The notes below the pieces were generated by a model. The model was not told where the DNA came from, searched no databases, and was given only the letters and a program-made list of their open reading frames with translations. Source: an uncultured Nitrospirales bacterium (GTDB lineage Bacteria > UBA10199 > JADGCS01). Taken from it: DNA of 64,000 bases. The stretch spans positions 7,341-71,340 of the forward strand of contig CAZGMS010000072.1 of assembly GCA_964526915.1 (NCBI GenBank), in the 5' to 3' direction. Within the stretch, counting starts at the first letter, position 1; every line of letters begins with the position of its first letter. This document shows positions 3,329-46,414 of the stretch, in pieces. A program made the position numbers and the translations under genes.

Positions 3329-3418
3329 GAGTGCCTCACAGAGCGGGCGGTATAATCATAAGCGAAAAGGGATGCAATCAAAAGATAGATTGGAGCATCA
3401 AATAGTCAGATGCGGTGG

Positions 3419-4546: not shown

Positions 4547-4591
4547 AATGATCAGTGCCTCAATTTTAGGATATTAGTCAAACATCAGCCA

Positions 4592-8406: not shown

Positions 8407-9230
8407 ACAATTTTATAATCATTATCGTTAGCCCGAATCTCTTTTATAGCTTCTTCATATGTACAAAAACAAATGTTTTGATTCTTAATATATTCTATGA
8501 GCCAAACATACCATTTTTTCCACATCATAAAATCAGGGCCAAAATATCTATCATGAAAAATAACGCTCAAAAATGGTTGGTTTTCATTTTCTGCTTTCTC
8601 GATAAGTTGAATGGTTGTTTTCTGTATTGCATTAAAATCTTTTCTCTGCCAACGAGTCCTTTTAGAATTCATCAAATCTGAATCCATGACTTGAACTGGA
8701 AAAGAATAAAAATCACCAATGGCTGTTATTTCACTTCCTCTGACACTCGCCGTGTAGAGATAACCTAATTCAGCAAGCCAGACTAGTGTGTTTGAAGAAT
8801 GCCTCAAGTAATGCATCCGAATCCCAAAATCCTGAAGACCTGATAATTCTGAAAACAATCTGTGCTCATTCTTCATTTGTGTATAATCATCAAAAGCAAT
8901 GCCATGCACACCAACTCGAAAACCCTTATTAAGAACCCTTCTTATCCAATAGACTGCACGTTTATGAGAATAAGACAGTCCCAATCCTTTGGCCACTCCT
9001 ATATAAAATGTGGATGGAATTTTGTGTTTTCGGTCAAATTCCATCAAATCGTCAATGTTATTCCACTGATTACGCATTGAATAATAAAATCTAAGAAAAC
9101 ACTCCTTAATAGAAATTATTCCTAAAACTGTTTCAATGATTGTTCTGATAATAAATTTAGGAATGATCATATCCTTCCAATGCTCCAAAAAACTGATATG
9201 ATCGACGTCATGTGACACAATAACTTTCAT
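8403..9230 (-). CDS. polysaccharide deacetylase-like protein (CE4-like, divergent)
   Basis: 275 aa. N-terminal VSHDVDH (variant of the CE4 TFDDG/HDVD motif), later HGIAFDD and IFHDRYF His/Asp motifs. 4-bp overlaps with both neighbours. Confidence 0.4.
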   Translation of the reverse strand: MKVIVSHDVDHISFLEHWKDMIIPKFIIRTIIETVLGIISIKECFLRFYYSMRNQWNNIDDLMEFDRKHKIPSTFYIGVAKGLGLSYSHKRAVYWIRRVLNKGFRVGVHGIAFDDYTQMKNEHRLFSELSGLQDFGIRMHYLRHSSNTLVWLAELGYLYTASVRGSEITAIGDFYSFPVQVMDSDLMNSKRTRWQRKDFNAIQKTTIQLIEKAENENQPFLSVIFHDRYFGPDFMMWKKWYVWLIEYIKNQNICFCTYEEAIKEIRANDNDYKIV

Positions 9231-10348
9231 TCTGTTATCTGCTCTTGTTTAAATAACTTATCATACAAAGATATGAGTGCTTTCTCCTCATTAGCCCAAT
9301 TATACTTTGCCAGCACTGCCCTTTGTCCATTTTGCCCCATCTGATGAGCCTCTTCTGGATGCTCAATGATCCACTTGATTGCTCGAGCAATTTCTCTCAC
9401 ATCCAAAGGATTAACACAAATTCCACAATGGTGCTCATCAACAATTTTTTTCCACAAAGGAAAATCTGATGCAATAACCGGTAGACCGACTAACATATAC
9501 TCAAACATCTTAACGGGCAAACTGTCTGCATGTTGACCCTGGGGGTGCAAAACAACAAAGCCTGCGCATGAACCACCTAACACTTTCATGACTTCTTCTC
9601 GGCCTAAGAAACCCATATAATTAGTTTTTTTCCATCCAGACATATTCATTACGTTTTTTCTTAATTCTTTTGAATCAAATTTTCCCGCTAAATCAAAACG
9701 TGCATCTGCCATATCGATGGCTTGAATCATCTCAGTAATACCTCGTGCTTTTGTGACAGCCCCCACATAACAAACAGTATTTGCGGATTTTGTTATATCA
9801 CTTTTTTCAACAAGTTTTTTTTCGTCAAGAATGGGATAATTACACACCAAAACAACTTGTGGGTGAAACTTGGCAAACCGCTCTTGAATCGTTTCAGTTG
9901 CACAAACGACAGCATGAAATTTTTTTGCGGCAATATTTTCAAATTTTTCCACACATTTTGCCAACAAGCCACGAACAACCATAGGAATCCACGTTTTAAC
10001 CAACATTTGCCGAGGCAAATCTTCATGCACATCATAAATAATTTTTTTTCCTCTTTTTTTAAGCTTCAAAGCATAAGGGATCATTTCAGGATCGTGAATA
10101 TGGTAACAATGAGCATTGACCTGTATCGCTTGTTTATATACCTGATGCGTTGAAATAAGAAACCGATGCCACCGACTTTTTGGTTTTGTAATCGTAATGA
10201 TTTTAACTTGAGTTCTTGGAACATTTTTGTTTTCTAAAGCAACATATGAAACATGGTACCCTTCGTTGAGTAAGGAACAACACTCTTTATGAAGTATCCT
10301 CACGCTATTTGTGGAATGACCCGAACTTAAGTGACAAACCTTTATCAT
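9227..10348 (-). CDS. glycosyltransferase, GT4 family
   Basis: 373 aa. C-terminal motif LPVKMFEYMLVGLPVIASD typical of GT4 retaining glycosyltransferases. Confidence 0.75.
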   Translation of the reverse strand: MIKVCHLSSGHSTNSVRILHKECCSLLNEGYHVSYVALENKNVPRTQVKIITITKPKSRWHRFLISTHQVYKQAIQVNAHCYHIHDPEMIPYALKLKKRGKKIIYDVHEDLPRQMLVKTWIPMVVRGLLAKCVEKFENIAAKKFHAVVCATETIQERFAKFHPQVVLVCNYPILDEKKLVEKSDITKSANTVCYVGAVTKARGITEMIQAIDMADARFDLAGKFDSKELRKNVMNMSGWKKTNYMGFLGREEVMKVLGGSCAGFVVLHPQGQHADSLPVKMFEYMLVGLPVIASDFPLWKKIVDEHHCGICVNPLDVREIARAIKWIIEHPEEAHQMGQNGQRAVLAKYNWANEEKALISLYDKLFKQEQITE

Positions 10349-10391
10349 GGCAAAATTTCAATGCAAATTTCTAAGAGAGCATCAAAAGCTC

Positions 10392-11753
10392 TCAATTCAA
10401 ACACCCTTCATTGCGAAACAAAACCCTTTTCGTTGGTAATAGAACCAAAAGAATTAAAGCCACAAGAATTCCATGTGTCAACAGAGCCGTCGGCAAATCA
10501 GAGCCGGAAAACATTGCAAAAAAAGGAATGACAATAATTGCTGTCACAATATTTTTATTCCTGTTTTGAGCCAAAGCATCTGTGATACCCAATAATAGGG
10601 AAATCAGACCTGCGTAAAGAGCCATTCCCCAATAACCTGCCTGCATAAATCCTGAGCCAATCCAACCTGTATTGGCACTACAATCAAAATTACCATAATA
10701 ATAATATCCCATCGTAAAAGGTCCGCTGAGACTATATGGCTGTTGTAGCATCCCAAGCGTAAAGGAACTATTTGACCATAACAACTGAGGTGATTGTGAA
10801 AAAAAATCATAATACTGGTAGTTGATCAACGCAGGCACAAAAAACACACGACGCATAAACCAACTTACAAGTACTTCCGCTATTCCTCCTAAAAGAAGAT
10901 GCATTCCTTGTATAAACAATAGCATTCCTATAAAATACAAAAGTAATTTACCTATCACATTTTTTTTGTGAATTAGATGAAATAAAAACATTACAACCCA
11001 AGGATAAAAGAATACTGACTTATGATTGCACAAACCAAACAACATGATACTACTGAACAAAAGGCTGAGAACACACCACCAACGTCTATTGACAATAGCT
11101 AAAATTAATGAAAAAGGTAACACCACCTTTGTTGTGACCGGAATAATGTAAGATAATAAACCGGGCCGAGAAGCACCCGCAGCCCTCCGGGTCTCATAAA
11201 CCAACGATAAATCAAAATTAAAATAGGCCATTCCACCAAAAGCAACAATCAACAGGATTGTTGCAATAACCCAAGCTAACGATATCTGCTGTAGAAACCC
11301 ATAGGACACAGAAAAACCAGTAGCCGAATTAAACAAACGAATTCTACTCAAAATAATTATCGCAATAAATAAAGCGACTATATAAAAAGTAAAGAATCTT
11401 GACAAATCCATAGCCCCATAAAGAACTAACATGGGCAAAATAGGGAAAAAAAATTGTGTGTGAAGCAAAATATCCGATGGTTTTTTGTAACTCTTTGGCA
11501 AAAAGAAAACAACCAACAAAATTGCTACAATACTTTCAAGAAATCTACTTGAATCAGGATACCAATAAAAACCATAATAACGCCAAACATTCGATATATA
11601 GTAATAATATCCATAAACAAATAAAACATAAATCATCAAATAGGCAATCATCATGATAAGCCACTGACTCATCACATGAAGCCTGTGATCTTCGCGATCC
11701 TCTATAACAATAGGAAATATTTTATCTAGAAATTTTACTTTCACGTTTATCAA
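10392..11753 (-). CDS. polytopic membrane protein, putative O-antigen / repeat-unit polymerase (Wzy-like)
   Basis: 453 aa, about 10-12 predicted TM helices. Very AT-rich and Tyr/Phe-rich. Sits next to wzx and glycosyltransferases with no other recognisable motif. Assigned by context. Confidence 0.45.
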   Translation of the reverse strand: MINVKVKFLDKIFPIVIEDREDHRLHVMSQWLIMMIAYLMIYVLFVYGYYYYISNVWRYYGFYWYPDSSRFLESIVAILLVVFFLPKSYKKPSDILLHTQFFFPILPMLVLYGAMDLSRFFTFYIVALFIAIIILSRIRLFNSATGFSVSYGFLQQISLAWVIATILLIVAFGGMAYFNFDLSLVYETRRAAGASRPGLLSYIIPVTTKVVLPFSLILAIVNRRWWCVLSLLFSSIMLFGLCNHKSVFFYPWVVMFLFHLIHKKNVIGKLLLYFIGMLLFIQGMHLLLGGIAEVLVSWFMRRVFFVPALINYQYYDFFSQSPQLLWSNSSFTLGMLQQPYSLSGPFTMGYYYYGNFDCSANTGWIGSGFMQAGYWGMALYAGLISLLLGITDALAQNRNKNIVTAIIVIPFFAMFSGSDLPTALLTHGILVALILLVLLPTKRVLFRNEGCLN

Positions 11754-11868
11754 TTCTCTATCTATTTCAAAGCTCCACCACTTTTATATAACAACCCCAA
11801 TATTGTACATTGAAAAATCTGTTTTATGCCCTAGCAACATAGCTGTTGAATCGTAGATTAATTCGAGA

Positions 11869-13338
11869 TCATCTTTTACAGATTGATTTTAGTAAGAATA
11901 CTATTTTGGATAATCTTGAAGGTAACACGATCTTCAATACAAGATAATATAATGCAAACCAAACAATAATCAAAAATGCCACAACCGCCACCCTCCAATT
12001 TAGTGAGTGGTGAACTCCAATAATATGATAGAGAAAAAAAACTAATGCTGATGGAATACTATTTACAAAAAAAACAACACCTGAAATTTTTATGAATTTA
12101 TAAATAGAAAAAGAATAGTAATGAGTCACCAACAATTGACCAAACAACCTATCAACAAAACCGTAAAGGCCAAAAGACAAGGCCACTCCAGTCAAATGCC
12201 ACATACTCCCAAAGCAAATAAAAGCTGGCATCACCACCACTCTGAATAGATTGAGCACTGTTTTAATGTGAGGTTTTCCGCTACTGAAGACCAAACTACT
12301 GATTATTCCGCCCCCACAAGTTATAAAAATTGAATAAATCGACATCAGACGAACTAACACAGTAATATTTGACCATTTTTGACCAAAAAATAACAAAACA
12401 ATAAAATCTGCAAAAATGATAACCAAAATTGGAAAAGGCAGAGATACTAAAGATGTTATCATCAGGGACTCCCAAAAATTATCTTCAATCTTTGCCTTGT
12501 TATCTTGTGATCTTGAATAAATAGGAAATAACACTTTATCGTACACACCATTGAGTAATGCAGGAAAAAATGTGACCATTCTGTGGGCTAGGTTGAAAGC
12601 ACCAACAGACGACATATCAAGAATTTTTCCAATAAAGAAAGTGTCAAACCTTGCCGACGAGGTAGCAAGAACTCGTCCAACTGATACCCAAATGCCAAAA
12701 GCTAATAGTTGTTTTGCCTCGAGAAATGATCCAAAACTTTTTGGAAGATATCGTGTGAACTGATAGCCAATAATTAGTGACAAGACTGAAGCAACAATTT
12801 TTCCAAAAATAATGCTGTGTGGTCCATAATGTTTCACCGCAAATATCACTGTAACAAATCCATAAACAAGGTGATTGCAAACATTGATAAAAGAAATTTG
12901 TTTAAACTTAAGAGACCTTTGCAATAAACAAGTCTGCAACGATGATAGTCCGATAAACACATAAGTAACAGCTGACCACCTCATCAAACCAAGTAATTGC
13001 TCTGTATTATAGAAACTTGCTAAAAAGGGAGCCAAAAAGAAAATTAGTAACGAAACAAACATTGTAAAAAACACAACGCAACTGAATGCGCTATCAATAA
13101 CAGTATCGTTGATGTCTTTTCTTTGAACAATAGCGATGGAAACTCCAAACTCAGAAAACACCTGCAAAATCACCTGTATGGCCAACACTACCATCACCAC
13201 ACCAAAATCAGCAGGCGTTAACAATCTTGCTAAAACAATACTCAGAATGAGAAGTATACCATTTTGAATTGAAGAACTTGAAAAAAACCAAAAAGCCCCT
13301 TTGACGGCGATTTGTGAATTATTTACTTTCATATACAC
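11869..13338 (-). CDS. wzx: Wzx-type O-unit flippase (MOP / PST family polysaccharide biosynthesis protein)
   Basis: 489 aa, about 12-14 TM helices. N-terminal PST-family pattern (LILSIVLARLLTPADFGVV). Adjacent to the Wzy-like gene. Confidence 0.7.
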   Translation of the reverse strand: MYMKVNNSQIAVKGAFWFFSSSSIQNGILLILSIVLARLLTPADFGVVMVVLAIQVILQVFSEFGVSIAIVQRKDINDTVIDSAFSCVVFFTMFVSLLIFFLAPFLASFYNTEQLLGLMRWSAVTYVFIGLSSLQTCLLQRSLKFKQISFINVCNHLVYGFVTVIFAVKHYGPHSIIFGKIVASVLSLIIGYQFTRYLPKSFGSFLEAKQLLAFGIWVSVGRVLATSSARFDTFFIGKILDMSSVGAFNLAHRMVTFFPALLNGVYDKVLFPIYSRSQDNKAKIEDNFWESLMITSLVSLPFPILVIIFADFIVLLFFGQKWSNITVLVRLMSIYSIFITCGGGIISSLVFSSGKPHIKTVLNLFRVVVMPAFICFGSMWHLTGVALSFGLYGFVDRLFGQLLVTHYYSFSIYKFIKISGVVFFVNSIPSALVFFLYHIIGVHHSLNWRVAVVAFLIIVWFALYYLVLKIVLPSRLSKIVFLLKSICKR

Positions 13339-13512: not shown

Positions 13513-14706
13513 TCACCTAACGATCTTTTTCAATCCTTTAAAAAGGGGACTTATTATGGAGAAAATGAACGGATAAGGATCGCGCCAAGACATTGGTTCA
13601 ATTGTATAGCCTCGTCCCATCAGGCTTTTTATATAACCAAAAGGTCTCAGATATTCCTTGTTTTTTATAATGGCTATGAGATCACCAGCCAAATACCACC
13701 AGAGAATCTTATCAGGGTATTCCTGTCTGAATTTCGTTAATACAGGCAAGAAACCCTGTAGAGCCTCTTGGTACATCAAATAAGGCAGATTGATGCCACA
13801 TCTAATGGCAAGGCTATTTGACATACTCATGCGTCCATTAATTTCCATGAGTTTGAATTGACCATCGCGGGGATCTAATTTGAACTGAGTTCCCGCATAT
13901 CCATAATAGCCAATTTTACGCACGAGTTTGAGACTATAATCTAATAAGGTATCGTTCCAGGTTGTTTCTACTAAAGTGCCTGATAAAAATTTTCCCTGGG
14001 ATCTCTTTTTGTAATTGATCAATAACCCTGTCGGTTGACTGTTCTTGTTAAGTGTCATTAACACAGTCTCGATCCTCTCAAACTCTCCAGGAATAAGATC
14101 TTGCAGTAGTAATTCTCCACCAAATCCATCAAAGTGCTTATAATTTCCTAGCAATTCTCCTTCATGATTACAGATAACTCCTTTTGTCCCATAATGGCTC
14201 AACAACGTACTGGAATGCTCTGCCTTCATGAATAAAGGATAGCTGAGTTTCTCTTCCTTGGAATTCAGCAGACTTTCCAACTCAGATTGGCAAGTAATAT
14301 AATGTGTTTTTGGTATGGGAACACCTAATTCCTCAGCAATTTTGTAAGTGCGCCTCTTTTCCCGCACCAACTTTACTGTTTCCCAATCGGGAAAAGTTGT
14401 CTTCATTTCAGCTTTTAGTTCATTATGTCTTTTTGCCAAAACATCCAAATAACTGTCATTACCAGCTACAATCAATACAGATTCTACGCCAATTTCTCGA
14501 TCAAACCACTTGTTCAGTTTTTCGATGAAATCGACATCCTTTGAATCCAATTGCAATATTTTTTTTACAAAACGGGATTTTGTACACAAACCTTTACCAT
14601 CTGGAGAAACCATGTAAATTGGAATATCATATTTGCATAGACCTCTTATCGCACCAAAAGCCGAAATATGATCACCAAAGATGATTACGGGGGGTGTGTT
14701 TTTCAT
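13513..14706 (-). CDS. ATP-grasp domain protein (carboxylate-amine ligase type)
   Basis: 397 aa. ATP-grasp signature elements QDLIPGEFERI (E-x-I-x-G type) and FKLMEINGRMS (E-x-N-x-R Mg/ATP motif). 4-bp overlap with the downstream-coordinate TPP enzyme gene. Confidence 0.6.
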   Translation of the reverse strand: MKNTPPVIIFGDHISAFGAIRGLCKYDIPIYMVSPDGKGLCTKSRFVKKILQLDSKDVDFIEKLNKWFDREIGVESVLIVAGNDSYLDVLAKRHNELKAEMKTTFPDWETVKLVREKRRTYKIAEELGVPIPKTHYITCQSELESLLNSKEEKLSYPLFMKAEHSSTLLSHYGTKGVICNHEGELLGNYKHFDGFGGELLLQDLIPGEFERIETVLMTLNKNSQPTGLLINYKKRSQGKFLSGTLVETTWNDTLLDYSLKLVRKIGYYGYAGTQFKLDPRDGQFKLMEINGRMSMSNSLAIRCGINLPYLMYQEALQGFLPVLTKFRQEYPDKILWWYLAGDLIAIIKNKEYLRPFGYIKSLMGRGYTIEPMSWRDPYPFIFSIISPLFKGLKKIVR

Positions 14707-15866
14707 CGAATGCCATCCTCAGTTAATAATTTCATGAATGCTTCCTTTTGTTCCCTAAGGTTGAAGTCCAGTGAACCAAGGTCACTCCGAATGCCTTTTC
14801 TGACGCGAATGTCAATAAAAGCAGAACCTTCAGTTGATAATAACGTTTTGATTGCATCGCGAAGAGCTTGTTCCGTTTCAACCGCCGCACCAACAGTCTT
14901 ATAACCCGAATTGTTGGCAATAGCTGTCAAATTTGCCACAAAACCAGCTGAGGGCTGGCCACCAACAGATTCGTGAGCACCATTATTCAAAACCACATGT
15001 AAAAAGTTCGGCAACTTGAGTTTTCCTGCCGTCGTCAAAGAACCCAAATGCATGATAGCCGCCGCATCTCCATCCAAACAAACAACAAGTCTCTTTTTTT
15101 GTGCCAAGGCAATACCAGAAGCAATTGAGCTGGTATGGCCCATAGCACCCACATTTAGAAAATCCTGATTGTGACCAACCCCGCTCAAGTTGCGTAAGCC
15201 GTAAAGCTCGCGTGTCGCTCTGCCTGTTGTTGCAACAAATATCGCTTCTTTCGGCACACACTGAAGAACACACTCAATCGCATTTTCCCGAGTCATGTTG
15301 TAAATACTATCTGAACCCTCCTCTTCTTTTTTCTTTCCTTTTTCAAACATCCCTTTCTTAGCAAGAAGCGCAACAGGGCCACATATCTTTTGAGCAGTGC
15401 GAACCGCCCACCTGGCGGCATCAAACGACCCCTCACCATCATTCTCTATTATTCTGAAGGGAATATCCATAGCCTCCAGTAATAAGGGCGTCAGTTCGCC
15501 CTGCTTTTTATGCTGTGCATGATCTGTAACGCCTGGATCACCGCGCCAGCCAATCAGCAATATCATTGGTATACCATACACCTCTTTGTTGGTGAGCGAA
15601 AGCAAGGGGTTCATGGCATTGCCTATTCCAGAATTTTGCATATATACCAGGGGCACGGTGCCCGTGGCAAAATGATAACCCGCGGCAAGTGCAACAGCAT
15701 TACCTTCGTTCGCCGCGATGACATGACGCTCACTGGGCAAATGAGCTTCGACATACTTGCAGAATTCATTAAGAAGTGAATCCGGCACGCCTGTTATAAA
15801 CGCAACCCCCTCATTTTGCAGGCACTCATAAAATGCTTTCTGATCGATCATAATCAATGTCCTCAC
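14703..15866 (-). CDS. thiamine-diphosphate-dependent 3-substituted-pyruvate decarboxylase (phosphonopyruvate / sulfopyruvate decarboxylase family, fused alpha-beta type)
   Basis: 387 aa. TPP-binding GDG motif region (VVCLDGDAAAIMHLGSLTT ... NNGAHESVGG). Size and domain order match the Ppd/ComDE family rather than the roughly 550-aa pyruvate-decarboxylase type. No PEP mutase partner is present in the window. Confidence 0.65.
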   Translation of the reverse strand: MRTLIMIDQKAFYECLQNEGVAFITGVPDSLLNEFCKYVEAHLPSERHVIAANEGNAVALAAGYHFATGTVPLVYMQNSGIGNAMNPLLSLTNKEVYGIPMILLIGWRGDPGVTDHAQHKKQGELTPLLLEAMDIPFRIIENDGEGSFDAARWAVRTAQKICGPVALLAKKGMFEKGKKKEEEGSDSIYNMTRENAIECVLQCVPKEAIFVATTGRATRELYGLRNLSGVGHNQDFLNVGAMGHTSSIASGIALAQKKRLVVCLDGDAAAIMHLGSLTTAGKLKLPNFLHVVLNNGAHESVGGQPSAGFVANLTAIANNSGYKTVGAAVETEQALRDAIKTLLSTEGSAFIDIRVRKGIRSDLGSLDFNLREQKEAFMKLLTEDGIR

Positions 15867-17215
15867 AACAAACGAAATAGACTATGGAAGTCTCTTTGTA
15901 CATTCCACACAATCTTTATGATTTCACGGCTTTCTTCCCCGGATTTATTTCCATACGCAGACAACGTGATAAACTTCTCTTTGATTTCATCATCTGAAAG
16001 CGGATTTTCAGGTTCTCCTTTGGGGAAATCAACTCTTTCAGTGTAAGATGCTCCATGACAAGTCTCAATTGTAACGATGGCGGCACGCTTTTGCGGCACT
16101 AGGGCTGTGATTTTCTCATCAGCGCAAACAACTATTCTTTTTGCTAGTGAAATGATCTCCGCATTGTTCACATTTTCTGCTGTAAACTCATCAAGGCCAG
16201 ATTTACCTTTCACAATGGCAACGGCCACACTGTATGGAATGCTCATTTTTGCTGAAGAGATGCCTCTGATTTCCGTGTGATCATGTTTGCCTATAACCCC
16301 TTTGTAAGTGGTCACCTTGATGCTTTTGATGTCAGAGACACAAAGACCATGGTTCAATTTGATCTTCAGTGTGGCTTCTATAGCTGGATGCGTGTGCCGA
16401 CAAGAAGCATATGACTTGAAATAAACTTTTTCGATCGAAAAAGGATCTCTATCATTTCTTTCCAAATGAGCCAAATCATGCTCTTTGGCCATCATCGATA
16501 AAAACCCTGTAGGGCCAGCGAGCACGTCATCAAGCCCCTTAAAACATGCTCTGCCCATGATTGATGATAACAAGCCAACCAGCGCAGCACGGCCTACATT
16601 AAATGGTTTTAAATCAGATCCATCTTCAATCACCTTAAGCATTCCTGATGCAGAAATTGCGGCCGCAGACAAGGCATCTTTCAGTTGAGTTTTGGTAAAA
16701 CTCAACATGGCCCCAATGCCCACGGCTGCCCCAAGGGAACCACAAGTGGCCGTAGGATGATAGCCACAATTGTAATGAGCCGGTTGCATGGCACTGGCAA
16801 TGCTAATTGCAGCTTCATAACCAATAATAACACCTTTAAGTAAAGCAGTGCCCTCGACTTTTTCTTTCTCAGCAACAGGTAACAGAGCCGATATAATGGG
16901 TGAACCTGGATGCAAAACACCAAAACGCACGCCATCGTCTAATTCAGCAATATGAGCACTAAGACCATTCATCAAAACAGCATTGATAAGACTCGCTTTT
17001 CTGTTAAAACCAATCACTGTGGCATCACTTTGAGTGTCATTCAAATATTTTAATAGCTCGTCACCTTTTTCTTTCATCATCCGTGCCCCAGCAAAAGTGG
17101 CACCCAGATAATCCAGCAAACACCTTTTCGCTTGTAACACAACAATATCGGGAAAATCCGTATGGCTCAAATGATAGAGAGTATCGATGAATTTATCAGT
17201 AAGGTTATCGGTCAT
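15863..17215 (-). CDS. MmgE/PrpD family protein (2-methylcitrate dehydratase / cis-aconitate decarboxylase family)
   Basis: 450 aa. N-terminal KRCLLDYLGATFAG, central FKSYASCRHTHPAIEA and C-terminal PKGEPENPLSDDEIKEKF are all characteristic of MmgE/PrpD proteins. Confidence 0.8.
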   Translation of the reverse strand: MTDNLTDKFIDTLYHLSHTDFPDIVVLQAKRCLLDYLGATFAGARMMKEKGDELLKYLNDTQSDATVIGFNRKASLINAVLMNGLSAHIAELDDGVRFGVLHPGSPIISALLPVAEKEKVEGTALLKGVIIGYEAAISIASAMQPAHYNCGYHPTATCGSLGAAVGIGAMLSFTKTQLKDALSAAAISASGMLKVIEDGSDLKPFNVGRAALVGLLSSIMGRACFKGLDDVLAGPTGFLSMMAKEHDLAHLERNDRDPFSIEKVYFKSYASCRHTHPAIEATLKIKLNHGLCVSDIKSIKVTTYKGVIGKHDHTEIRGISSAKMSIPYSVAVAIVKGKSGLDEFTAENVNNAEIISLAKRIVVCADEKITALVPQKRAAIVTIETCHGASYTERVDFPKGEPENPLSDDEIKEKFITLSAYGNKSGEESREIIKIVWNVQRDFHSLFRLL

Positions 17216-17226
17216 GTATTATTATT

Positions 17227-18183
17227 TTATCGGAAATAAAACTGGAAATAGCTGGGGCATTCTGATTTTGTATCTTCCCATGCCGCAGTAAACGCACTCA
17301 CTATTGTTTCAGGTAGAGGTCCTTTTTTGACTGCAAAAAGATTCTGCTTTAACTGGTCCCTATTTGAAGCACCTATTATCATTCCATCACCTTCGCTTTT
17401 GTCAAGGAGTGAATGAAAAGCAAGCCACCGATAGGCCGCTTCAGCGGTCTCTATTCCTGATTTTCGGCATGCTATTGTAAGAACATTGACTGCCTCAAAA
17501 TAGGATTTTTTCCAATACCTGTCACGATAACTCTGAAGTCGCGCAAAGCGACCAGACATGGGCTTTTCGTCAAAATTGATGTGTTTTCCTGACAACATGC
17601 CACCAGCCAGAGGATTGAATGCGTAAAAACGCATGCCCAACTTTCTTAAAGCGGGAAACAACTCGCCCTCAACGTTGCGGGTCAATCCGTTATACATCCC
17701 CTGATACACACTTGGCCTGAGCCAGCCACGTTCTTTGCAAAGATGCCATATGTCCACAACCATCCAGGCGGGAAAATTACTTAATCCCAGTTCCTTAATT
17801 TTCCCCTGTTCATGGAGGTTTGCACACGCTTCCAAGGCCCCCTCAATGGGGGTTTGAGCATCTGGAAAATGAAGATACAAAATATCAACCGAATCACGGC
17901 ACAGGCGGCGCAGTGATTCTTCAAACTGCATGATCACCGCAACACCATCAAGTTTGCCCGTAACCCGGGGATGAACTTTGGTCGCAAGACAAAGAGAATC
18001 TTCCGTAAACTCATTCAGAAAAGTGCCAAGAATTTTTTCGGTTTCGCCTTCGTTATATACGTAAGCCGTGTCCAATTCATGGTAACCTGCTTCAATGAAG
18101 CATTTCACCATGGCACGACTACCCTCGGTATCCACCTGAGGACCAAAAGTCATTGTTCCCAATATCAGTTTCATCATATCCAT
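17227..18183 (-). CDS. aldo/keto reductase family oxidoreductase
   Basis: 318 aa. N-terminal LGTMTFG and the HELDTAYVYNEGETE motif region of AKRs. Confidence 0.8.
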   Translation of the reverse strand: MDMMKLILGTMTFGPQVDTEGSRAMVKCFIEAGYHELDTAYVYNEGETEKILGTFLNEFTEDSLCLATKVHPRVTGKLDGVAVIMQFEESLRRLCRDSVDILYLHFPDAQTPIEGALEACANLHEQGKIKELGLSNFPAWMVVDIWHLCKERGWLRPSVYQGMYNGLTRNVEGELFPALRKLGMRFYAFNPLAGGMLSGKHINFDEKPMSGRFARLQSYRDRYWKKSYFEAVNVLTIACRKSGIETAEAAYRWLAFHSLLDKSEGDGMIIGASNRDQLKQNLFAVKKGPLPETIVSAFTAAWEDTKSECPSYFQFYFR

Positions 18184-18198
18184 TGGAGGTGCCCTTTA

Positions 18199-19089
18199 CT
18201 AAATTGACCCTTTTGCTGAGCACAAAGCATCGCTATCATAACTGTCAATAACTCGTTTGACAAGATTGACCTGCTTGGCTCGCTTTTTTGCCTCAGCCAC
18301 AGTCGTTTCCCAACCATGCGTTTTGGCAACTGAGCCTCCTGTTTTAAGATATATAGGGGAACCCACCCGTATCATTTCTGGCACTTCATAATGGCGAATA
18401 AAACCACCGGACGACGCGGGATTTTCTGTATGAATATCGATCGGGATGCTGATGGCTTGCCTTATAGCGGCAAGCATTTGCAGTTGAATGTCCCTGACCG
18501 GGTTGATCGAATTTGCTCCTACATTTTCCAGAAGTTTGGCGGAACAAGGATTGCCATGACCGCAATGGGCAGATATTTTGAATTTACAATCAGAAGGAAG
18601 CTCACCTTGCTTGCGCATTTCATCTAACACCCACAAAAGTCCTTCATCATAAATCAAAAAACCTCTACACCCCAATTTGCCAGCACGTTTAACATCCTCG
18701 ATGGCACGAACGATTTGTTCCTGCCCACGGAGCCGGAGCCCCATTTTTTGACCTTCCTCCGTGTGAACTGATGCGCTCGTATCGTAAGTTGCCCGCGGAC
18801 CGATGGCCAGCACGAGTTCCACCTGCCATTGTTTTGCCAACGCCACCATTTCATTTATTTCATCATCAGTCAGAATCATGATGCCCTTTGTTTGCGTAAC
18901 GCGGTGGATAACGGCACCAAAGGTATCCAATTCTTCAAGCAAAGCCTTCATTGAGCCGGGTCCCTGTATACCAGGCACCTCAAACCTGTACTGCGCGCCA
19001 TCCGCGAATCGCTTTGCAGACGATGGCAGATCATACGCATCTCCTGATGGTAATCCTATTTTATTAAGAAACAACCTGGTCTCTTTCAT
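18199..19089 (-). CDS. hypothetical protein, possibly an alpha/beta-barrel enzyme (unassigned)
   Basis: 296 aa. Alternating beta/alpha-like pattern and a Cys/His-rich segment KISAHCGHGNPCSAK. I could not match ComA, PEP mutase, HpcH or DRE-TIM motifs. It is tightly packed inside the acid-metabolism cassette. Confidence 0.25.
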   Translation of the reverse strand: MKETRLFLNKIGLPSGDAYDLPSSAKRFADGAQYRFEVPGIQGPGSMKALLEELDTFGAVIHRVTQTKGIMILTDDEINEMVALAKQWQVELVLAIGPRATYDTSASVHTEEGQKMGLRLRGQEQIVRAIEDVKRAGKLGCRGFLIYDEGLLWVLDEMRKQGELPSDCKFKISAHCGHGNPCSAKLLENVGANSINPVRDIQLQMLAAIRQAISIPIDIHTENPASSGGFIRHYEVPEMIRVGSPIYLKTGGSVAKTHGWETTVAEAKKRAKQVNLVKRVIDSYDSDALCSAKGSI

Positions 19090-19129
19090 TTTTTCATCCC
19101 CCTAATGGTTCATCCATCTGTTTTCTTGT

Positions 19130-20005
19130 CTACCCCAGAACAATACTATTTTTTCTTGGATCGTAGCAACATCCCATCCGCAGGCTGACAATGCGCACAC
19201 CGCTTGCCCTTTGTGGCCCAATTTCTACAAATGAATTTAATGCCGTAATGCTACCCCCAATCCCCAGCGGCCCACAAAAAGTATTGTTCAGTGTTGCCGT
19301 AATCAATGCTTCAATCTCGTTTTCGTTTCCAAAAGTCTTGTTTGCCATAGCATCGAGCATGAGGCAAGTCGCTTCATAATGTGTTCTTCCTATCCCAACA
19401 GCAGGAACGCAGGGTGTACATCCAAGCAAACCTACCATTTCTACTGCCCAACCGGCAATTTCCGTGCTGATTCGAGAAGAATCGTGGTGGTGAAATACTC
19501 TATAGGTGCGGGATCGTATTTCCGGCCCCCCTCCAAGCATCATCACAGTCAAACGAAGCTGACTGCCTTTGATTGTTTTCATTCTAATCGGGGCAGATGT
19601 CAACATTCCCGAATCTTCGTAAAGCCCCTTTGTTTGTACGAGCCTTTCCATATCATTGCCACACACAGCCATCGGACGGCCTGGTAAAGCTCGCAAACCT
19701 GCTACAATACCATTATCGACAATTTCTAAAAGTTTTCCAACATTGCCTTCAATGTCAGCCTCATCACCTACCTCAAGCAAAACATGGGGCACCCCTGTAT
19801 CGTTGCATAAAGGTAATTTGTTTTTTTCTGCGACGATCGCATTTTCTAATATCATCTCAAGAATCCACTTCGCTTTCTGCTCTGTTTCCCTCGCAATGGC
19901 ATTCTCATAGGCCAGACGCTGATCATGACGAAAACTTGTGCTCGCTTTTATCAATGCCTCGGCAGACGCTTCTAGAATTTCAGATAGTTTTATTGCCACG
20001 CACAC
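19130..20005 (-). CDS. Fe-S hydro-lyase alpha subunit (class I fumarate hydratase / L(+)-tartrate dehydratase alpha family)
   Basis: 291 aa. CNDTGVP motif (family CQDTG-type cluster ligand region) plus further conserved Cys residues. Its partner beta subunit is immediately downstream. Confidence 0.7.
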   Translation of the reverse strand: MCVAIKLSEILEASAEALIKASTSFRHDQRLAYENAIARETEQKAKWILEMILENAIVAEKNKLPLCNDTGVPHVLLEVGDEADIEGNVGKLLEIVDNGIVAGLRALPGRPMAVCGNDMERLVQTKGLYEDSGMLTSAPIRMKTIKGSQLRLTVMMLGGGPEIRSRTYRVFHHHDSSRISTEIAGWAVEMVGLLGCTPCVPAVGIGRTHYEATCLMLDAMANKTFGNENEIEALITATLNNTFCGPLGIGGSITALNSFVEIGPQRASGVRIVSLRMGCCYDPRKNSIVLG

Positions 20006-20020
20006 CCTTTTTAGTTCTGT

Positions 20021-20551
20021 TCATTTGACATGAAAAATTGATTCCCCGTTGGCCGCGGCTATGATGCCGGGCAAGCCACGAATCGTTAATTCATGCAACG
20101 CTTCCATGCCCTCTTCTTCAAACGCTATCACCCTTTTAGAAATCAATCGACTCTGAAAAAGAGCTGATGTCGGCGGCACAACAATAAAAATGGCCCCATG
20201 TCTGGATATATCTTTGACTGTTTGCTTTTTAAGAACACCTTTTCCGATATGCAACCGAACACCCGCTTCAGACAGAATACCCATCGTTCCTTCGATTTCT
20301 TCTTTATTGCTTGAGGTTGGGCCAAAACCGGCTGGGCTAAAAGCGGCATGCATAAAAGCCGCACCTTCCATGGTAATCGGTAGTTCCGTTATCGTGCCAT
20401 CTTTTATCATTTTAGCAATCTTCGGCAATATGGCATCTCTGGCGGTATAAACCACACCGTGTATTTCCACACGACTACCGACTAGCACATTCGACAAATC
20501 AGTCCTCACAGGTGTTTCAATTTTAAGAAGCAAATTAACACATCCTCTCAT
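20021..20551 (-). CDS. Fe-S hydro-lyase beta subunit (fumarate hydratase C-terminal / TtdB family)
   Basis: 176 aa. GVVYTARDAILPK matches the family G-x-x-YTARDAAH-K motif. Separated from the alpha subunit by a 15-bp gap. Confidence 0.7.
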   Translation of the reverse strand: MRGCVNLLLKIETPVRTDLSNVLVGSRVEIHGVVYTARDAILPKIAKMIKDGTITELPITMEGAAFMHAAFSPAGFGPTSSNKEEIEGTMGILSEAGVRLHIGKGVLKKQTVKDISRHGAIFIVVPPTSALFQSRLISKRVIAFEEEGMEALHELTIRGLPGIIAAANGESIFHVK

Positions 20552-20593
20552 GGCATATTAGGCATCTTGAAAATACAGATTAAAGCACGGCTA

Positions 20594-21736
20594 TTATTTT
20601 AAGATGAGTTTTAAGTAGGTTGCTTCATTTTCAATAACTCCGTATGCTTTTGCCCGACTGATGATTTTTTTCGCCCAGTGTTTGTGTGGGTTTATTTCAT
20701 TCATTTTATTGGCCTTCACACTTTTAACCACACCTCCTGGTGTTTCTAATATTTGTAGGGCATCCTCAAATTCTTCCCTGATCACCGTCTGCATGGCATT
20801 GACATATTTGGCGTGCGAGGGGTGAATGATTGTTTTACCGACAAATCCATTGGCCTTATCAAGAATAACTTCCCTCATCAAGCCATCAACCGCTTCATTT
20901 AAGATCGGACTTCTGGTCAACAAAGAACGATGAATATCATCGGCCAATAAATTATCAAGATTATCCCCTTTGTGCACCAAAAAATACTCCCACACTGGTC
21001 CAGACACCGTGTAGTTATCTTCCTCTCTGCTGAAAAAATTCAACACATCAGACAAACAATCTTTGACTGTCAAGATATCATAAATGGAGTAGTTGATCCC
21101 TCGCCTCACTCCAAACATCGATGAAATATCAGTTCCTCCAATCCTGATATTCAGAACAAGTTTTTTAAAAGGCTCCATCATTGTTCTGATCTGACTCAAC
21201 TCATCAGTTCTCAATTCCTTATACGCTATTGTTTTTCCCTCAAGAATGGGCATGCCATACAAAGAAACTTTTAATTTACTATTCAGAGATTCAAGACAAT
21301 TGAAGTACTCTTGACAATTATGACTACAGAACTTGGGGAACGCAAATCCAGACAAAACGTTAGATTGTTCGCTCGTTAACTTCTCAACAAACCCCTTGAA
21401 TTGCTCTGGATGACGCACGCGCAGAAAGATTAATGGTATTTCATCGTGTGTGATCGCCCCTAAAGCCAAGGCTTCTGCAATTTTGTTCAATTGACTTAAC
21501 ACACTGTTCTCGGCCACTGGCAAGATCATTTCATCAACAGCATCTTCAAAGTCCATGACAATCGATGTTGCCTCAAGCACATCCTTTTTTAATAATTTAT
21601 CAACAATATTTTGCGTGCCCGGCATATAGAGTGTGGCGCCTAGACAATACTGCAACAAATCTTTATCAGTGAATTTGTTAAATTCTATTGGTTCCAAAAA
21701 AAATTGGGTGTTTGGATGATATCTGTGGTGCTTCAT
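20594..21736 (-). CDS. HpcH/HpaI aldolase / citrate lyase beta-subunit (CitE)-like lyase with a C-terminal extension
   Basis: 380 aa. N-terminal ATLYMPGT (cf. CitE SMLFVPG) and DFEDAV (cf. D-L-E-D-A/S-V Mg-binding motif). About 90 aa longer than canonical CitE. Confidence 0.55.
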   Translation of the reverse strand: MKHHRYHPNTQFFLEPIEFNKFTDKDLLQYCLGATLYMPGTQNIVDKLLKKDVLEATSIVMDFEDAVDEMILPVAENSVLSQLNKIAEALALGAITHDEIPLIFLRVRHPEQFKGFVEKLTSEQSNVLSGFAFPKFCSHNCQEYFNCLESLNSKLKVSLYGMPILEGKTIAYKELRTDELSQIRTMMEPFKKLVLNIRIGGTDISSMFGVRRGINYSIYDILTVKDCLSDVLNFFSREEDNYTVSGPVWEYFLVHKGDNLDNLLADDIHRSLLTRSPILNEAVDGLMREVILDKANGFVGKTIIHPSHAKYVNAMQTVIREEFEDALQILETPGGVVKSVKANKMNEINPHKHWAKKIISRAKAYGVIENEATYLKLILK

Positions 21737-21824: not shown

Positions 21825-22901
21825 TCACAATACAGTGCCATATTTCATGGCTCGATACCTCACACAATAAAAATATAGCGAATAACTGATAAGGATAATG
21901 GTGAAAATAATAATGACTATACTGTTACTAAGTGTTTTAATATAATAAAAAGCCAGTGCGGCCAATATGATAGTCTGCAAATAATAAAAAAGTGTTATCG
22001 ACTTCACCTCCCAACCCATCATGTGAAGCAACTGATACGGATGCATCCTGTGCGCCTGATATATTTTATGCCCCTGACACAGCCGCCAAATGACGGTAAA
22101 CAATGTTTCCATTATAAAATTAGCAAATAAAATGGGCGTGATCAAAAAAGGTGTGTGTGATTGATCATAGTTAGCCGCCAAGATGGCAATGGCACCAAAA
22201 GAAAATCCCAAAAAAGTACTGCCCACATCGCCCATAAATATGGTGCCTTTGGGAAAATTGAATATCAAAAAACCTAAAGCAGCGGCCGCCAACATATAAC
22301 TCACATGAAACACAAAACCACTACCCATCATGAACGTAATCAGTGTAAAACCCAGCCCCACCAGCACAGCCGTACCTGCAGCCAAACCATTGATCCCATC
22401 CATAAAGTTAAAGGCGTTTGTGATGCCCACAATCCATAAAATGGTCAGCGGATAACCCCATATTCCCAACTCTACATTTCCGAAATAAGGAATGGTGAGC
22501 TTTTTGATTGTGAGGCCAAAGGCCATCAGTATGATCACGCCAACAAACTGACTGAGGAACTTATAGGCAAAGGCCTTATTAGTGATGTCATCATACAAAC
22601 TGACAACAGCAATCATGAGAGATGATAAAAACAAACCCCAGTATGGCTTGGCGCCCACAAAATTATCATTCTGCAAAACATAGTAGAGCAAAATGCCTAT
22701 GCAATACGATACGACAATGGCAATTCCTCCACTACGAGGTATAGCACCCGTGTGAGAACTTCTTGCACACGCTGTATCCATGATCCTGACATATTTACGG
22801 CAAAGATATGTAAAGCATGCTGACAAAAATACCAGCATGATAAAAAAAGCGGTATTCGAAACATAAAACATGCTATGATTTTTCAAAAGTTCTGTCAGCA
22901 T
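21825..22901 (-). CDS. polyprenyl-phosphate N-acetylhexosamine-1-phosphate transferase (WecA / WbpL / MraY superfamily)
   Basis: 358 aa polytopic membrane protein with the NAFNFMDGINGLAAG motif and the DDxxN-containing loop (VSLYDDITNK). Confidence 0.85.
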   Translation of the reverse strand: MLTELLKNHSMFYVSNTAFFIMLVFLSACFTYLCRKYVRIMDTACARSSHTGAIPRSGGIAIVVSYCIGILLYYVLQNDNFVGAKPYWGLFLSSLMIAVVSLYDDITNKAFAYKFLSQFVGVIILMAFGLTIKKLTIPYFGNVELGIWGYPLTILWIVGITNAFNFMDGINGLAAGTAVLVGLGFTLITFMMGSGFVFHVSYMLAAAALGFLIFNFPKGTIFMGDVGSTFLGFSFGAIAILAANYDQSHTPFLITPILFANFIMETLFTVIWRLCQGHKIYQAHRMHPYQLLHMMGWEVKSITLFYYLQTIILAALAFYYIKTLSNSIVIIIFTIILISYSLYFYCVRYRAMKYGTVL

Positions 22902-29505: not shown

Positions 29506-29523
29506 AAAAAATGTCGAAACGAA

Positions 29524-36966: not shown

Positions 36967-36968
36967 AG

Positions 36969-46406: not shown

Positions 46407-46414
46407 GGACTCTG

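Follow-up and report, generated by a model that had tools for sequence, protein, structure and literature searches.

A 64,000-nucleotide stretch of contig CAZGMS010000072.1 from an uncultured Nitrospirales bacterium (hereafter the window) carries eight consecutive acid-metabolism genes, at positions 13513-21736, inside a long array of glycan biosynthesis genes. The cassette represents one version of a modular pathway of glycan loci that is widespread and has spread horizontally, and that is organised as a core of three proteins combined with two interchangeable enzymatic steps. The module probably makes a small hydroxy acid and attaches it to an amino sugar. As such it looks like a new, apparently never studied pathway within a known general kind, the biosynthesis of non-sugar glycan substituents. 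Nothing on this module was found in the literature, and no described pathway was found there for the gene set, in keeping with the initial annotation of the window, which could not map the cassette onto any. NCBI names the module proteins 'peptidase', 'ATP/GTP-binding protein' or 'citrate lyase beta subunit', generic labels which indicate that their function was never curated.

The initial annotation had been made from the sequence alone, and its eight open reading frames (ORFs), their coordinates, family types and flanking genes all match the ORF calls and the Pfam and NCBIfam searches. Every cassette ORF lies on the minus strand, and transcription runs from 21736 to 13513. In that direction, with the two flanking genes at either end, the features are as follows:

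21825-22901, minus strand: WecA/MraY-family initiating transferase, directly upstream of the cassette (Pfam Glycos_transf_4, 128 bits)
20594-21736, minus strand: CitE/malyl-coenzyme A (CoA)-lyase-like triosephosphate isomerase (TIM)-barrel C-C lyase or synthase (PF15617 C-C_Bond_Lyase, 363 bits, residues 27-367)
20021-20551, minus strand: Fe-S hydro-lyase beta subunit (FumB), divergent class-I-fumarase type (Pfam Fumerase_C, 70 bits)
19130-20005, minus strand: Fe-S hydro-lyase alpha subunit (FumA; Pfam Fumerase, 165.6 bits)
18199-19089, minus strand: U296, a 296-aa TIM-barrel protein without a Pfam or NCBIfam match
17227-18183, minus strand: AKR7-family aldo-keto reductase (AKR; Pfam Aldo_ket_red, 189.8 bits)
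15863-17215, minus strand: MmgE/PrpD-family protein of dehydratase, decarboxylase or epimerase type (Pfam MmgE_PrpD_N and MmgE_PrpD_C)
14703-15866, minus strand: Ppd/AepY-type thiamine pyrophosphate (TPP)-dependent 2-oxoacid decarboxylase (TPP_enzyme_N and TPP_enzyme_C; TIGR03297, 419.5 bits, cutoff 312.5)
13513-14706, minus strand: ATP-grasp ligase of the ATPgrasp_Ter / PRK12767-like subfamily (Pfam ATPgrasp_Ter and CPSase_L_D2)
11869-13338, minus strand: Wzx-type flippase, directly downstream of the cassette (Pfam Polysacc_synt_3, 227 bits)

The tight coupling described at first, with 4-bp overlaps at 14703-14706 and 15863-15866 and gaps of 11-42 bp, was reproduced from the ORF coordinates, and larger spacers bound the cassette (88 bp upstream, 174 bp downstream). 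The true start of the decarboxylase is probably the ATG five codons downstream. Promoter and terminator scans gave scores no better than those of shuffled sequence, which is consistent with a single long operon.

The recurrence of the cassette was scanned in one genome per species by way of U296. U296 has more than 6000 homologous protein clusters, of which the best 120 are 77-100% identical, and its relatives occur at 498 places in species-representative genomes. The best 80 of these 498 places are distributed over Bacillota, Bacteroidota, Balneolota, Cloacimonadota, Desulfobacterota, Lentisphaerota, Verrucomicrobiota, Spirochaetota, Fibrobacterota-like lineages, Bdellovibrionota, Omnitrophota, Chloroflexota, Myxococcota and Pseudomonadota; carriers include gut Lachnospiraceae, Ruminococcus and Bacteroides as well as marine Bacteroidota. 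Locus statistics were drawn from 38 loci flanked by 7 kb or more on each side, whose ORFs were called and clustered. Glycan genes (DegT, Wzx, GT2, RmlA/RmlB or a sugar-phosphate transferase) are present in 36 of these 38 loci, and 279 of 280 core genes share the strand of the U296 gene. The neighbourhoods thus place relatives of the cassette in polysaccharide loci, the opposite of what a known primary-metabolism operon unlinked to glycan loci would give. The joint and co-directional recurrence of these genes in dozens of unrelated genomes exceeds what chance would produce.

U296 and the PrpD protein are found in all 38 loci and the PF15617 lyase in 37, followed by a DegT aminotransferase (32/38), an ATP-grasp ligase of about 420 aa and LAL type (31/38), FumA and FumB (27/38 and 26/38), the AKR and Ppd (17/38 and 16/38), 2-Hacid_dh (11/38), and Ldh_2, Lyase_1 (ADSL_C) and Cyclase (PF04199) (10/38 each). 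Frequent around the module are Wzx, which follows it in 18 loci, GT2, RmlA/RmlB, hexapeptide acyltransferases and sugar-phosphate transferases. Annotated examples include a polysaccharide-export locus of Algoriphagus and a NeuB/Maf nonulosonic-acid and flagellin-glycosylation locus of Tissierella. The nearest relative, on an 83-kb JGI contig (83-86% identity), has a gene order identical to that of the window: WecA-like transferase, lyase, FumB, FumA, U296, AKR, PrpD, Ppd, an ATP-grasp of ATPgrasp_Ter type and Wzx. No transporter or regulator was found conserved with the module among the clustered ORFs of related loci.

These loci also revise the view of the cassette as an eight-gene unit. The genes and their glycan link are real, but the fixed set of eight gives way to an invariant core of three proteins (the PF15617 lyase, the MmgE/PrpD protein and U296) plus two swappable steps. 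The terminal slot is occupied by Ppd and the AKR in 17 loci, 2-Hacid_dh in 10, Ldh_2 in eight, a mixture in two and none of these in one. FumB with FumA fills the hydratase slot in 27 loci and Lyase_1 with the cyclase in 10; one locus has neither pair and none has both. The two slots are found in every one of their six possible combinations, of which the arrangement of the window, Ppd/AKR with Fum, is the commonest (12/38). The AKR is always paired with a Ppd-type decarboxylase in module loci. Three loci, L026, L028 and L050, are among those with two PrpD-family genes; they are rare hybrids that might reveal the order of steps, and L026 contains both Ldh_2 and Ppd and lacks the AKR.

The content of the terminal slot bears directly on the chemistry. 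Its options are a decarboxylase or either of two unrelated 2-hydroxyacid dehydrogenase families, which points to a 2-oxoacid as the branch point. In the simplest reading, the constant genes would deliver a 2-oxoacid that is then either reduced, or decarboxylated and reduced. For the 2-Hacid_dh alternative, a D-2-hydroxyacid dehydrogenase, the best family match is phosphoglycerate dehydrogenase (PGDH)/glyoxylate reductase. For Ldh_2 it is L-sulfolactate/malate dehydrogenase, at 289 against a cutoff of 500 for sulfolactate dehydrogenase. Reduction of 2-oxoglutarate or oxaloacetate is among the activities known in both groups. Classical 2-oxoacid chain elongation, with its sequence of condensation, isomerisation and oxidative decarboxylation, was rejected as a full explanation of the module, since a dehydrogenase is missing from the decarboxylase branch and the dehydrogenases replace Ppd and the AKR.

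Among the core proteins, the lyase gave an AlphaFold2 model with a predicted local distance difference test (pLDDT) score of 80.8. In a Foldseek search of the PDB, the top 50 matches of this model were all CitE-family acyl-CoA lyases (E 2e-9 to 1e-6, target template-modelling score 0.54-0.77), the best being an acyl-CoA lyase beta (9nzb), (S)-citramalyl-CoA lyase (8khl), malyl-CoA lyase (4l9y), CLYBL (5vxc) and CitE of Mycobacterium tuberculosis (6arb), at E of about 1e-9. The sequence did not pass the NCBIfam equivalog models, with scores of 28.7 against 375 for RipC and 21.4 against 443 for CitE, each over about 60 residues, and phmmer found no match among PDB chains. As modelled, then, the lyase is related to CitE by its fold and is not a sequence member of that family. 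The second core component, the PrpD protein, has as its nearest solved relatives an IRG1 homologue of Bacillus subtilis (7bra, 9e-39), iminodisuccinate epimerase (2hp3) and cis-aconitate decarboxylases. The PrpD equivalog models score it at 28-41 bits against cutoffs of 458-950. All of these nearest relatives, whether IRG1-type, cis-aconitate decarboxylase or iminodisuccinate epimerase, act on polycarboxylates.

U296 is the most conserved protein of the module. In the same loci its copies are 74-84% identical to that of the window, against a median of 46-56% for its partners, and only this relative difference is meaningful because the loci were chosen by U296 similarity. Its sequence displays the beta/alpha repeat typical of a TIM barrel, and its AlphaFold2 model is of moderate quality (pLDDT 63). 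A profile search of the PDB returned nothing, and there was no detectable similarity to the isocitrate lyase (ICL)/phosphoenolpyruvate (PEP)-mutase family. The score against Peptidase_U32 (PF01136) was 12.8 bits and did not reach the gathering score of 22.4. This family is weakly matched by 30 of 42 diverse U296 relatives (best E 2.4e-8), and NCBI names some relatives 'U32 family peptidase'. The peptidase U32 family includes O2-independent hydroxylases. Conservation across the wider U296 family (30-50% identical) falls mainly on Asp, Glu, Arg, Lys, Ser and Asn, with no invariant Cys. Three assignments from short motifs were considered, namely a ComA-like protein, an ICL/PEP-mutase-like protein ('HCGH' at 175-178, resembling KKCGH) and a DRE-TIM-like protein ('RFxDGAQ'). 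They were rejected because the motifs are not conserved in the wider family and have no profile support.

More distant U296 homologues (40-50% identical) form operons outside glycan loci, with a bona fide class I fumarase, malic enzyme and often Ldh_2, and also with aldehyde:ferredoxin oxidoreductase and Tct, tripartite ATP-independent periplasmic (TRAP) or major facilitator superfamily (MFS) transporters (L084 6904-11688, L090 8001-14032, L091 8001-11918 and L086 8001-13060). Their hosts are thermophilic or anaerobic fermenters and Bathyarchaeia, and this type of operon looks like an uncharacterised organic-acid catabolic pathway. In Thermomicrobium, a U296 homologue adjoins a mandelate-racemase-family protein and a sugar ATP-binding cassette (ABC) transporter. 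An apparent small-molecule biosynthetic cluster on plasmid pE20191216 of Enterobacter chuandaensis (L098 6898-16831) includes a 35%-identical relative, whose neighbours are a phosphotransferase, an NAD(P) oxidoreductase, a class I/II aminotransferase, an iron-containing redox enzyme, an M14 peptidase, an MFS transporter and a nucleotidyltransferase. Taken together, these contexts and the family traits suggest, if softly, that U296 may be an enzyme of lyase or aldolase type with hydroxy- or oxo-carboxylic acids as its substrates.

The hydratase of the window is similarly divergent. The alpha subunit scores 115.8 bits on the NCBIfam fumarate hydratase model (cutoff 276) and 36 against 365 on TtdA, the beta subunit reaches 65 bits on the Fe-S hydro-lyase model (cutoff 238), and the bona fide fumarases beside the distant U296 homologues score 429-445 bits. 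The alpha subunit is 22-25% identical to canonical alpha subunits and keeps the three Cys ligands of the 4Fe-4S cluster (C67, C196 and C279). Judged by these scores and ligands, FumAB appears to be a neofunctionalised Fe-S hydro-lyase, a superfamily member whose substrate probably differs from those of the fumarate and tartrate enzymes. In ten loci its place is taken by Lyase_1/ADSL_C and a 337-aa PF04199 'cyclase' (L001 12975-15368, L061 15665-18027 and eight further loci). The best match of this Lyase_1 protein is 3-carboxy-cis,cis-muconate cycloisomerase (445 bits, below cutoff), with 426 bits on the XcbD model of coenzyme M (CoM) biosynthesis, and known members of the cyclase family are metal hydrolases. 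Lactonisation followed by opening of the lactone equals net hydration and would account for the replacement of a two-subunit hydratase by a pair of genes; Lyase_1 and the cyclase could thus give net hydration via a lactone. Hosts of this pair are mostly aerobic (Algoriphagus, Balneola, Billgrantia, Kaistella, Pararhodonellum and Pelagicoccus), and the pair may be an oxygen-tolerant, non-orthologous replacement of FumAB.

Every recognisable family of the cassette is a central-metabolism family, and some catabolic operons do combine distant U296 homologues with fumarase and malic enzyme. Both facts would fit a primary or catabolic organic-acid operon that lies in the glycan operon by chance and has nothing to do with the polysaccharide. 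Such an origin is nevertheless very improbable. The loci lie within glycan loci in 36 of 38 cases with 279 of 280 core genes co-directional, DegT and ATP-grasp genes co-occur with them, and a conserved transporter or regulator is missing. Furthermore, the FumAB of the module falls far below the fumarases encoded in such catabolic settings (115.8 against 429-445 bits), and the cassette of the window is packed tightly between an initiating transferase and a flippase, with promoter and terminator scores at chance level.

The decarboxylase and the reductase of the window define the branch that is expected to set the final product. The AKR matches human AKR7A2 (2bp1) over its full length with about 46% identity (E 4e-85, 289 bits), while other solved AKRs score at most 120 bits. 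AKR7A2 is a succinic semialdehyde reductase, and in AKR7A1 Arg231 and Arg327 bind the carboxylate of the substrate. All 30 module AKRs have an Arg at the position of Arg231 (R222 in the window), and this, together with the likeness to AKR7A2, argues for an acid-aldehyde substrate and hence for an acid-aldehyde reductase. The decarboxylase, in turn, shares 46.8% and 45.5% identity with the AepY proteins of Fulvitalea and Segatella (Segatella copri), respectively, both of which adjoin aepX; the further neighbours in those glycan contexts are a phosphonoacetaldehyde reductase and a LicD or TagF-like transferase. In a phylogenetic tree the module decarboxylases form one clade, sister to Bacteroidota AepY, with the proteobacterial AepY outside. 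A search for positions conserved but different between the module decarboxylases and AepY found none, which is weak evidence with only four AepY sequences.

By sequence, the module enzyme is thus indistinguishable from true phosphonopyruvate decarboxylases, which raises the prospect that the decoration is a phosphonate or sulfonate. The decarboxylase would then be a true phosphonopyruvate or sulfopyruvate decarboxylase and the AKR would make 2-hydroxyethylphosphonate from phosphonoacetaldehyde, with the 2-Hacid_dh and Ldh_2 variants producing phosphonolactate or sulfolactate and with a PEP mutase encoded elsewhere or replaced by an unrecognised core enzyme. Several lines of evidence agree with this view: the TIGR03297 score (419.5 bits against 312.5), the 45-47% identity to AepY proteins adjoining aepX, a reductase and a LicD/TagF-like transferase in glycan contexts, and the position of the clade inside AepY diversity, as sister to Bacteroidota AepY, without any specificity-switch position. 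In addition, the Ldh_2 alternative is nearest to L-sulfolactate dehydrogenase, Lyase_1 reaches 426 bits on the CoM XcbD model, and VlpB, a PGDH-like enzyme, reduces phosphonopyruvate in valinophos biosynthesis.

Nevertheless, the genes that would supply and transfer a phosphonate were not found. The PEP-mutase motif EDKxxxxxNS is absent from the six frames of the window, and its single match in 30 decarboxylase-carrying loci is a false positive inside FumA. PEP_mutase, LicD, Glyphos_transf and phosphonate cytidylyltransferase do not recur among the 106 other ORFs of decarboxylase-carrying loci, and phosphonate activation or transfer genes and an AEP (2-aminoethylphosphonate) transaminase, present in genuine cassettes, are absent from the scanned neighbours in the window. 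A module that crosses phyla without a C-P-forming enzyme would be non-functional unless a core protein supplied phosphonopyruvate. The reductase is of AKR7 type, whereas genuine cassettes use the iron-dependent alcohol dehydrogenase (Fe-ADH) type; the lyase, PrpD protein, hydratase and ATP-grasp would be left without a role; and distant U296 homologues are tied to C4-dicarboxylate enzymes. On the sulfonate side, the ComDE models score the decarboxylase far below cutoff (94 against 221.5 and 87 against 148) and no ComA match exists among the eight proteins. A sulfonate route in the order ComA to ComDE was also rejected on the mutual exclusivity of Ldh_2 and Ppd. A phosphonate or sulfonate decoration is accordingly considered unlikely, though it is the main competing reading. 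Less probable again is a special form of it, in which a new C-P bond-forming enzyme, either U296 or the PF15617 lyase, would be a source of phosphonopyruvate independent of PEP mutase. PF15617 shares the PEP/pyruvate-domain barrel superfamily with PEP mutase, and the three mutually exclusive terminal options would pull the unfavourable C-P-forming reaction forward. If true, 2-hydroxyethylphosphonate- or phosphonolactate-bearing glycans would be expected in hundreds of species that have no pepM beside the decarboxylase.

The ATP-grasp ligase and its acceptor represent the attachment part of the module. The ligase of the window matches ATPgrasp_Ter (4e-9, 36.7 bits, cutoff 29.1), a family that the usual LAL-type partner matches weakly. 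Aligned by hhalign, the two share their architecture (98% probability, 16% identity, 334 columns). The ligase follows Ppd, which is the slot of the LAL-type enzyme elsewhere, and a 405-aa ATPgrasp_Ter protein occupies it in the nearest relative. Other Ppd-type loci also have non-LAL ATP-grasps of the ATPgrasp_Ter or ATP-grasp_3/PylC-like kind. The LAL-type enzyme is present in 11 of 17 loci of the decarboxylase branch and in 18 of 18 single-type loci of the dehydrogenase branch. The candidate acceptor is encoded further upstream:

27600-28766, minus strand: WecE-type dTDP-4-amino-4,6-dideoxyhexose aminotransferase of the DegT family (NF008687, 594.6 bits, cutoff 375; TIGR02379, 575 bits, cutoff 435)
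31267-32340 and 32337-33206, minus strand: RmlB and RmlA, respectively (Pfam GDP_Man_Dehyd/Epimerase for the RmlB/RmlA entry)

The RmlB and RmlA of the window are 51% and 67% identical, respectively, to proteins adjoining the module in other loci, and the WecE-type enzyme is 57% identical to the DegT protein of one module locus (L051). RmlA and RmlB precede the WecE-type gene, which has no N-acetyltransferase beside it. On this gene arrangement the WecE-type aminotransferase would supply the amine acceptor from dTDP-4-keto-6-deoxyglucose made by RmlA and RmlB. The initial annotation had counted four DegT aminotransferases as possible sources of amino sugars; three are clear (4592-5833, 27600-28766 and 53205-54461) and the one at 40084-41172 is weak or partial.

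The ATP-grasp subfamily itself varies (LAL-type, ATPgrasp_Ter, ATP-grasp_3/PylC-like) while the acid-making genes stay constant, which would suit differing substrates on the glycan side. The product could then be the nucleophile, an alcohol or amine, with the ATP-grasp activating a carboxylate of the glycan, on a uronic or nonulosonic acid, as happens when Campylobacter makes glucuronamide; alternatively, the ATP-grasp could act first and the other enzymes remodel an acyl group bound to the sugar nucleotide. Loss of a carboxylate and creation of a primary alcohol in the decarboxylase branch also favour such an arrangement, as do UDP-glucose/GDP-mannose dehydrogenase (UDPG_MGDP_dh) domains in three to four Ppd-type loci, NeuB in two, and the nonulosonic-acid/Maf setting of the Tissierella locus. 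Yet the most constant partner on the sugar side is a dTDP-aminohexose aminotransferase (32/38), and the LAL-type ATP-grasp is common to both branches (11/17 and 18/18). One LAL-type family for both branches is most easily explained by recognition of the part of the acid that both share. To our knowledge, formation of glycan esters by an ATP-grasp enzyme is likewise without precedent. These alternative modes of attachment are therefore judged improbable, on a par with a phosphonate or sulfonate product.

Chemistry on small (di)carboxylic acids, which the initial annotation had proposed for the cassette, fits the fold of the lyase, the AKR7 type of the reductase and an Fe-S hydratase with three Cys ligands. 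In the preferred model, the core makes a 2-oxo-dicarboxylate, which in the window becomes an omega-hydroxy acid amide-linked to dTDP-4-amino-4,6-dideoxyhexose. Core and hydratase would build the 2-oxo-dicarboxylic acid from central metabolites by aldol or Claisen condensation, dehydration and rehydration. This would follow the logic of the methylcitrate or citramalate pathways, with two barrels of C-C lyase type, one PrpD protein, one hydratase and no redox enzyme in the core. In the branch found in the window, the decarboxylase would take off C1 and the AKR7 enzyme reduce the resulting acid-aldehyde to an omega-hydroxy acid of the 4-hydroxybutanoate or 2,4-dihydroxybutanoate type. In other loci, the same intermediate would be reduced to a 2-hydroxy-diacid of the 2-hydroxyglutarate type. 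The ATP-grasp would activate the distal carboxylate, common to both branches, and form an amide with the 4-amino group of dTDP-4-amino-4,6-dideoxyhexose, and the decorated sugar would enter a Wzx/Wzy-type polymer. This general model is the leading candidate, at slightly under an even chance; any particular acid carries much less confidence.

Several findings count against it. A conserved CoA ligase, CoA transferase or thioesterase is missing from the module, a difficulty if the lyase uses CoA thioesters. The structural matches of U296 are generic, from a model of pLDDT 63, and its function is still unassigned. The decarboxylase lies above the phosphonopyruvate decarboxylase cutoff and nests in AepY diversity, so that a carboxy-analogue substrate has to be assumed. 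The C-terminal Arg327 equivalent of AKR7 is kept in 10 of 30 module AKRs only and is Gln in the window. By tblastn the ATP-grasp of the window was detected in one of 48 loci longer than 15 kb, and it is not orthologous to the usual LAL-type partner. Moreover, ATP-grasp enzymes in glycan loci can activate the carboxylate of a uronic acid instead of a small acid.

The closest analogues in logic are the methylcitrate cycle (PrpC, PrpD, aconitase and PrpB) and the citramalate/mesaconate/itaconate metabolism of C5-branched dibasic acids, which share four steps with the module: a C-C synthase or lyase, a PrpD-family step, a hydratase and a second TIM-barrel enzyme. CitE-type lyases, a mesaconase of class-I-fumarase type and the PrpD-family cis-aconitate decarboxylase all act in this area of metabolism. 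In contrast to the methylcitrate cycle, the module has no orthologues of its enzymes. PF15617 replaces the citrate-synthase family, a fumarase-type enzyme replaces aconitase, the module PrpD scores 28-41 bits against cutoffs of 458-950, U296 has no ICL/PEP-mutase similarity, and the context is glycan synthesis, not propionate catabolism. Consistent with this, profile scans of the cassette proteins detected no PrpC of the citrate-synthase family, no aconitase and no PrpB of the ICL/PEP-mutase family.

Other known systems share single elements. The AepX-AepY-phosphonoacetaldehyde reductase glycan cassettes of Bacteroidota, for 2-hydroxyethylphosphonate or AEP, have the same coupling of decarboxylase and reductase, with decarboxylases 45-47% identical to those of the module. 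The module differs in lacking PEP mutase, LicD, TagF-like and cytidylyltransferase genes, in using AKR7 in place of Fe-ADH, and in having four to five further acid-metabolism genes and an ATP-grasp. The Ter-operon-associated module, from which PF15617 and ATPgrasp_Ter (PF15632) derive, brings together the same two Pfam families as the cassette, and its own product is only predicted. It differs in context, the cassette being part of a glycan operon, and its phosphoribosyltransferase, HAD phosphatase and TerD-type genes were detected neither in the 38 Pfam-scanned ORFs of the window nor among the recurrent families of related loci. The AKR7A2/AKR7A1 enzymes (aflatoxin aldehyde/succinic semialdehyde reductase) resemble the module AKR in full-length identity (about 46%) and in the invariant Arg231 equivalent. 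Unlike them, the module AKR is bacterial, coupled to a TPP decarboxylase and equipped with a short C-terminal extension, and the Arg327 equivalent is often lost.

For the attachment step, glucuronamide formation by Cj1438 of Campylobacter jejuni likewise involves an ATP-grasp of a polysaccharide locus that joins a carboxylate to an amine from neighbouring genes. In that system the carboxylate is on the sugar and the amine on the small molecule. The cassette ATP-grasp has no orthology to it, and the constancy of a sugar aminotransferase as partner indicates that the polarity is probably reversed in the module. The predicted products resemble known N-acyl groups. Vibrio cholerae O1 carries 3-deoxy-L-glycero-tetronyl (2,4-dihydroxybutanoyl) on perosamine, Tenacibaculum maritimum carries (S)-2-hydroxyglutar-5-yl on a 4-amino sugar, and 4-hydroxybutanoyl on nonulosonic acids is also known. 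These groups correspond to the product classes predicted for the two terminal branches, amide-linked via the distal carboxyl. The V. cholerae route involves acyl carrier protein, acyl-CoA-ligase-like and Fe-ADH genes (rfbKLMNO), not the families of the module, and we know of no genetic route assigned to the 2-hydroxyglutar-5-yl or 4-hydroxybutanoyl groups.

The charge of bacterial surface glycans, their antigenicity and their recognition by phages and the immune system depend largely on non-sugar substituents, most of which lack known biosynthetic genes. U296 offers a gene marker for predicting a specific glycan decoration from sequence, and the module brings at least one enzyme family without an assigned function or fold class. 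Its 'plug-and-play' design, with two swappable steps in six combinations, could account for chemical diversity at the serotype level. It is also a clean test case for whether Ppd-type decarboxylases operate outside phosphonate metabolism, and the existence of several cultured carriers makes it directly testable. Among these, Mediterraneibacter massiliensis Marseille-P2086, M. glycyrrhizinilyticus and Desulfobacter latus AcRS2 have Ppd/AKR with Fum, Pararhodonellum marinum SW124 and Pelagicoccus sp. have Ppd/AKR with Lyase_1, and Tissierella simiarum MSJ-40, Algoriphagus sp. NG3 and Billgrantia campisalis A4 have 2-Hacid_dh variants.

In base composition, the cassette is richer in guanine plus cytosine (GC) than the wzx/wzy/glycosyltransferase segment at 7153-13338 (43.1% against 35.6%), as originally pointed out. 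It is not a compositional outlier, however: the window mean is 41.1% and that of the upstream glycan genes 41.3%, for which reason the AT-rich wzx/wzy block is the one that deviates. Within the cassette, the ATP-grasp (38.1%) and the lyase (39.0%) lie at the lower end, and the middle six genes range from 42.6 to 47.3%.

Two S-adenosylmethionine-dependent methyltransferases at 28708-30321, between the GT2/RmlAB genes and the WecE-type aminotransferase, include one with a weak BioC-like (carboxyl O-methyltransferase) match, and could methylate the amino sugar or the acid substituent. A second ATP-grasp, a paralogue 23% identical to that of the cassette, lies at 44497-45681 near a PHP-domain protein (43797-44522), a DUF7033 protein (42431-43795) and two methyltransferases (45645-47155); on the nearest relative contig, too, the cassette and Wzx are followed by DUF7033. 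At 1442-7042 there is a complete bacillosamine-type set, comprising a PglF-like dehydratase of 628 aa, Wzz, a PseC/PglE-like DegT, a PglD-like hexapeptide acetyltransferase and a PglC-like Bac_transf. Together with the WecA-like enzyme, the last of these provides a second initiating transferase, and the window may encode more than one glycan. The biosynthetic operon further includes, at 33203-37020, a heparinase II/III-like protein (537 aa) and a 735-aa fusion of Zn-alcohol-dehydrogenase and GFO/IDH/MocA oxidoreductase, and a FemAB-like protein is encoded at 39099-40118. Across positions 1-64000, all of the approximately 56 large ORFs are on the minus strand, mostly with short gaps or overlaps, forming an unusually long co-directional glycan array, and GC skew is negative in every 1-kb bin.

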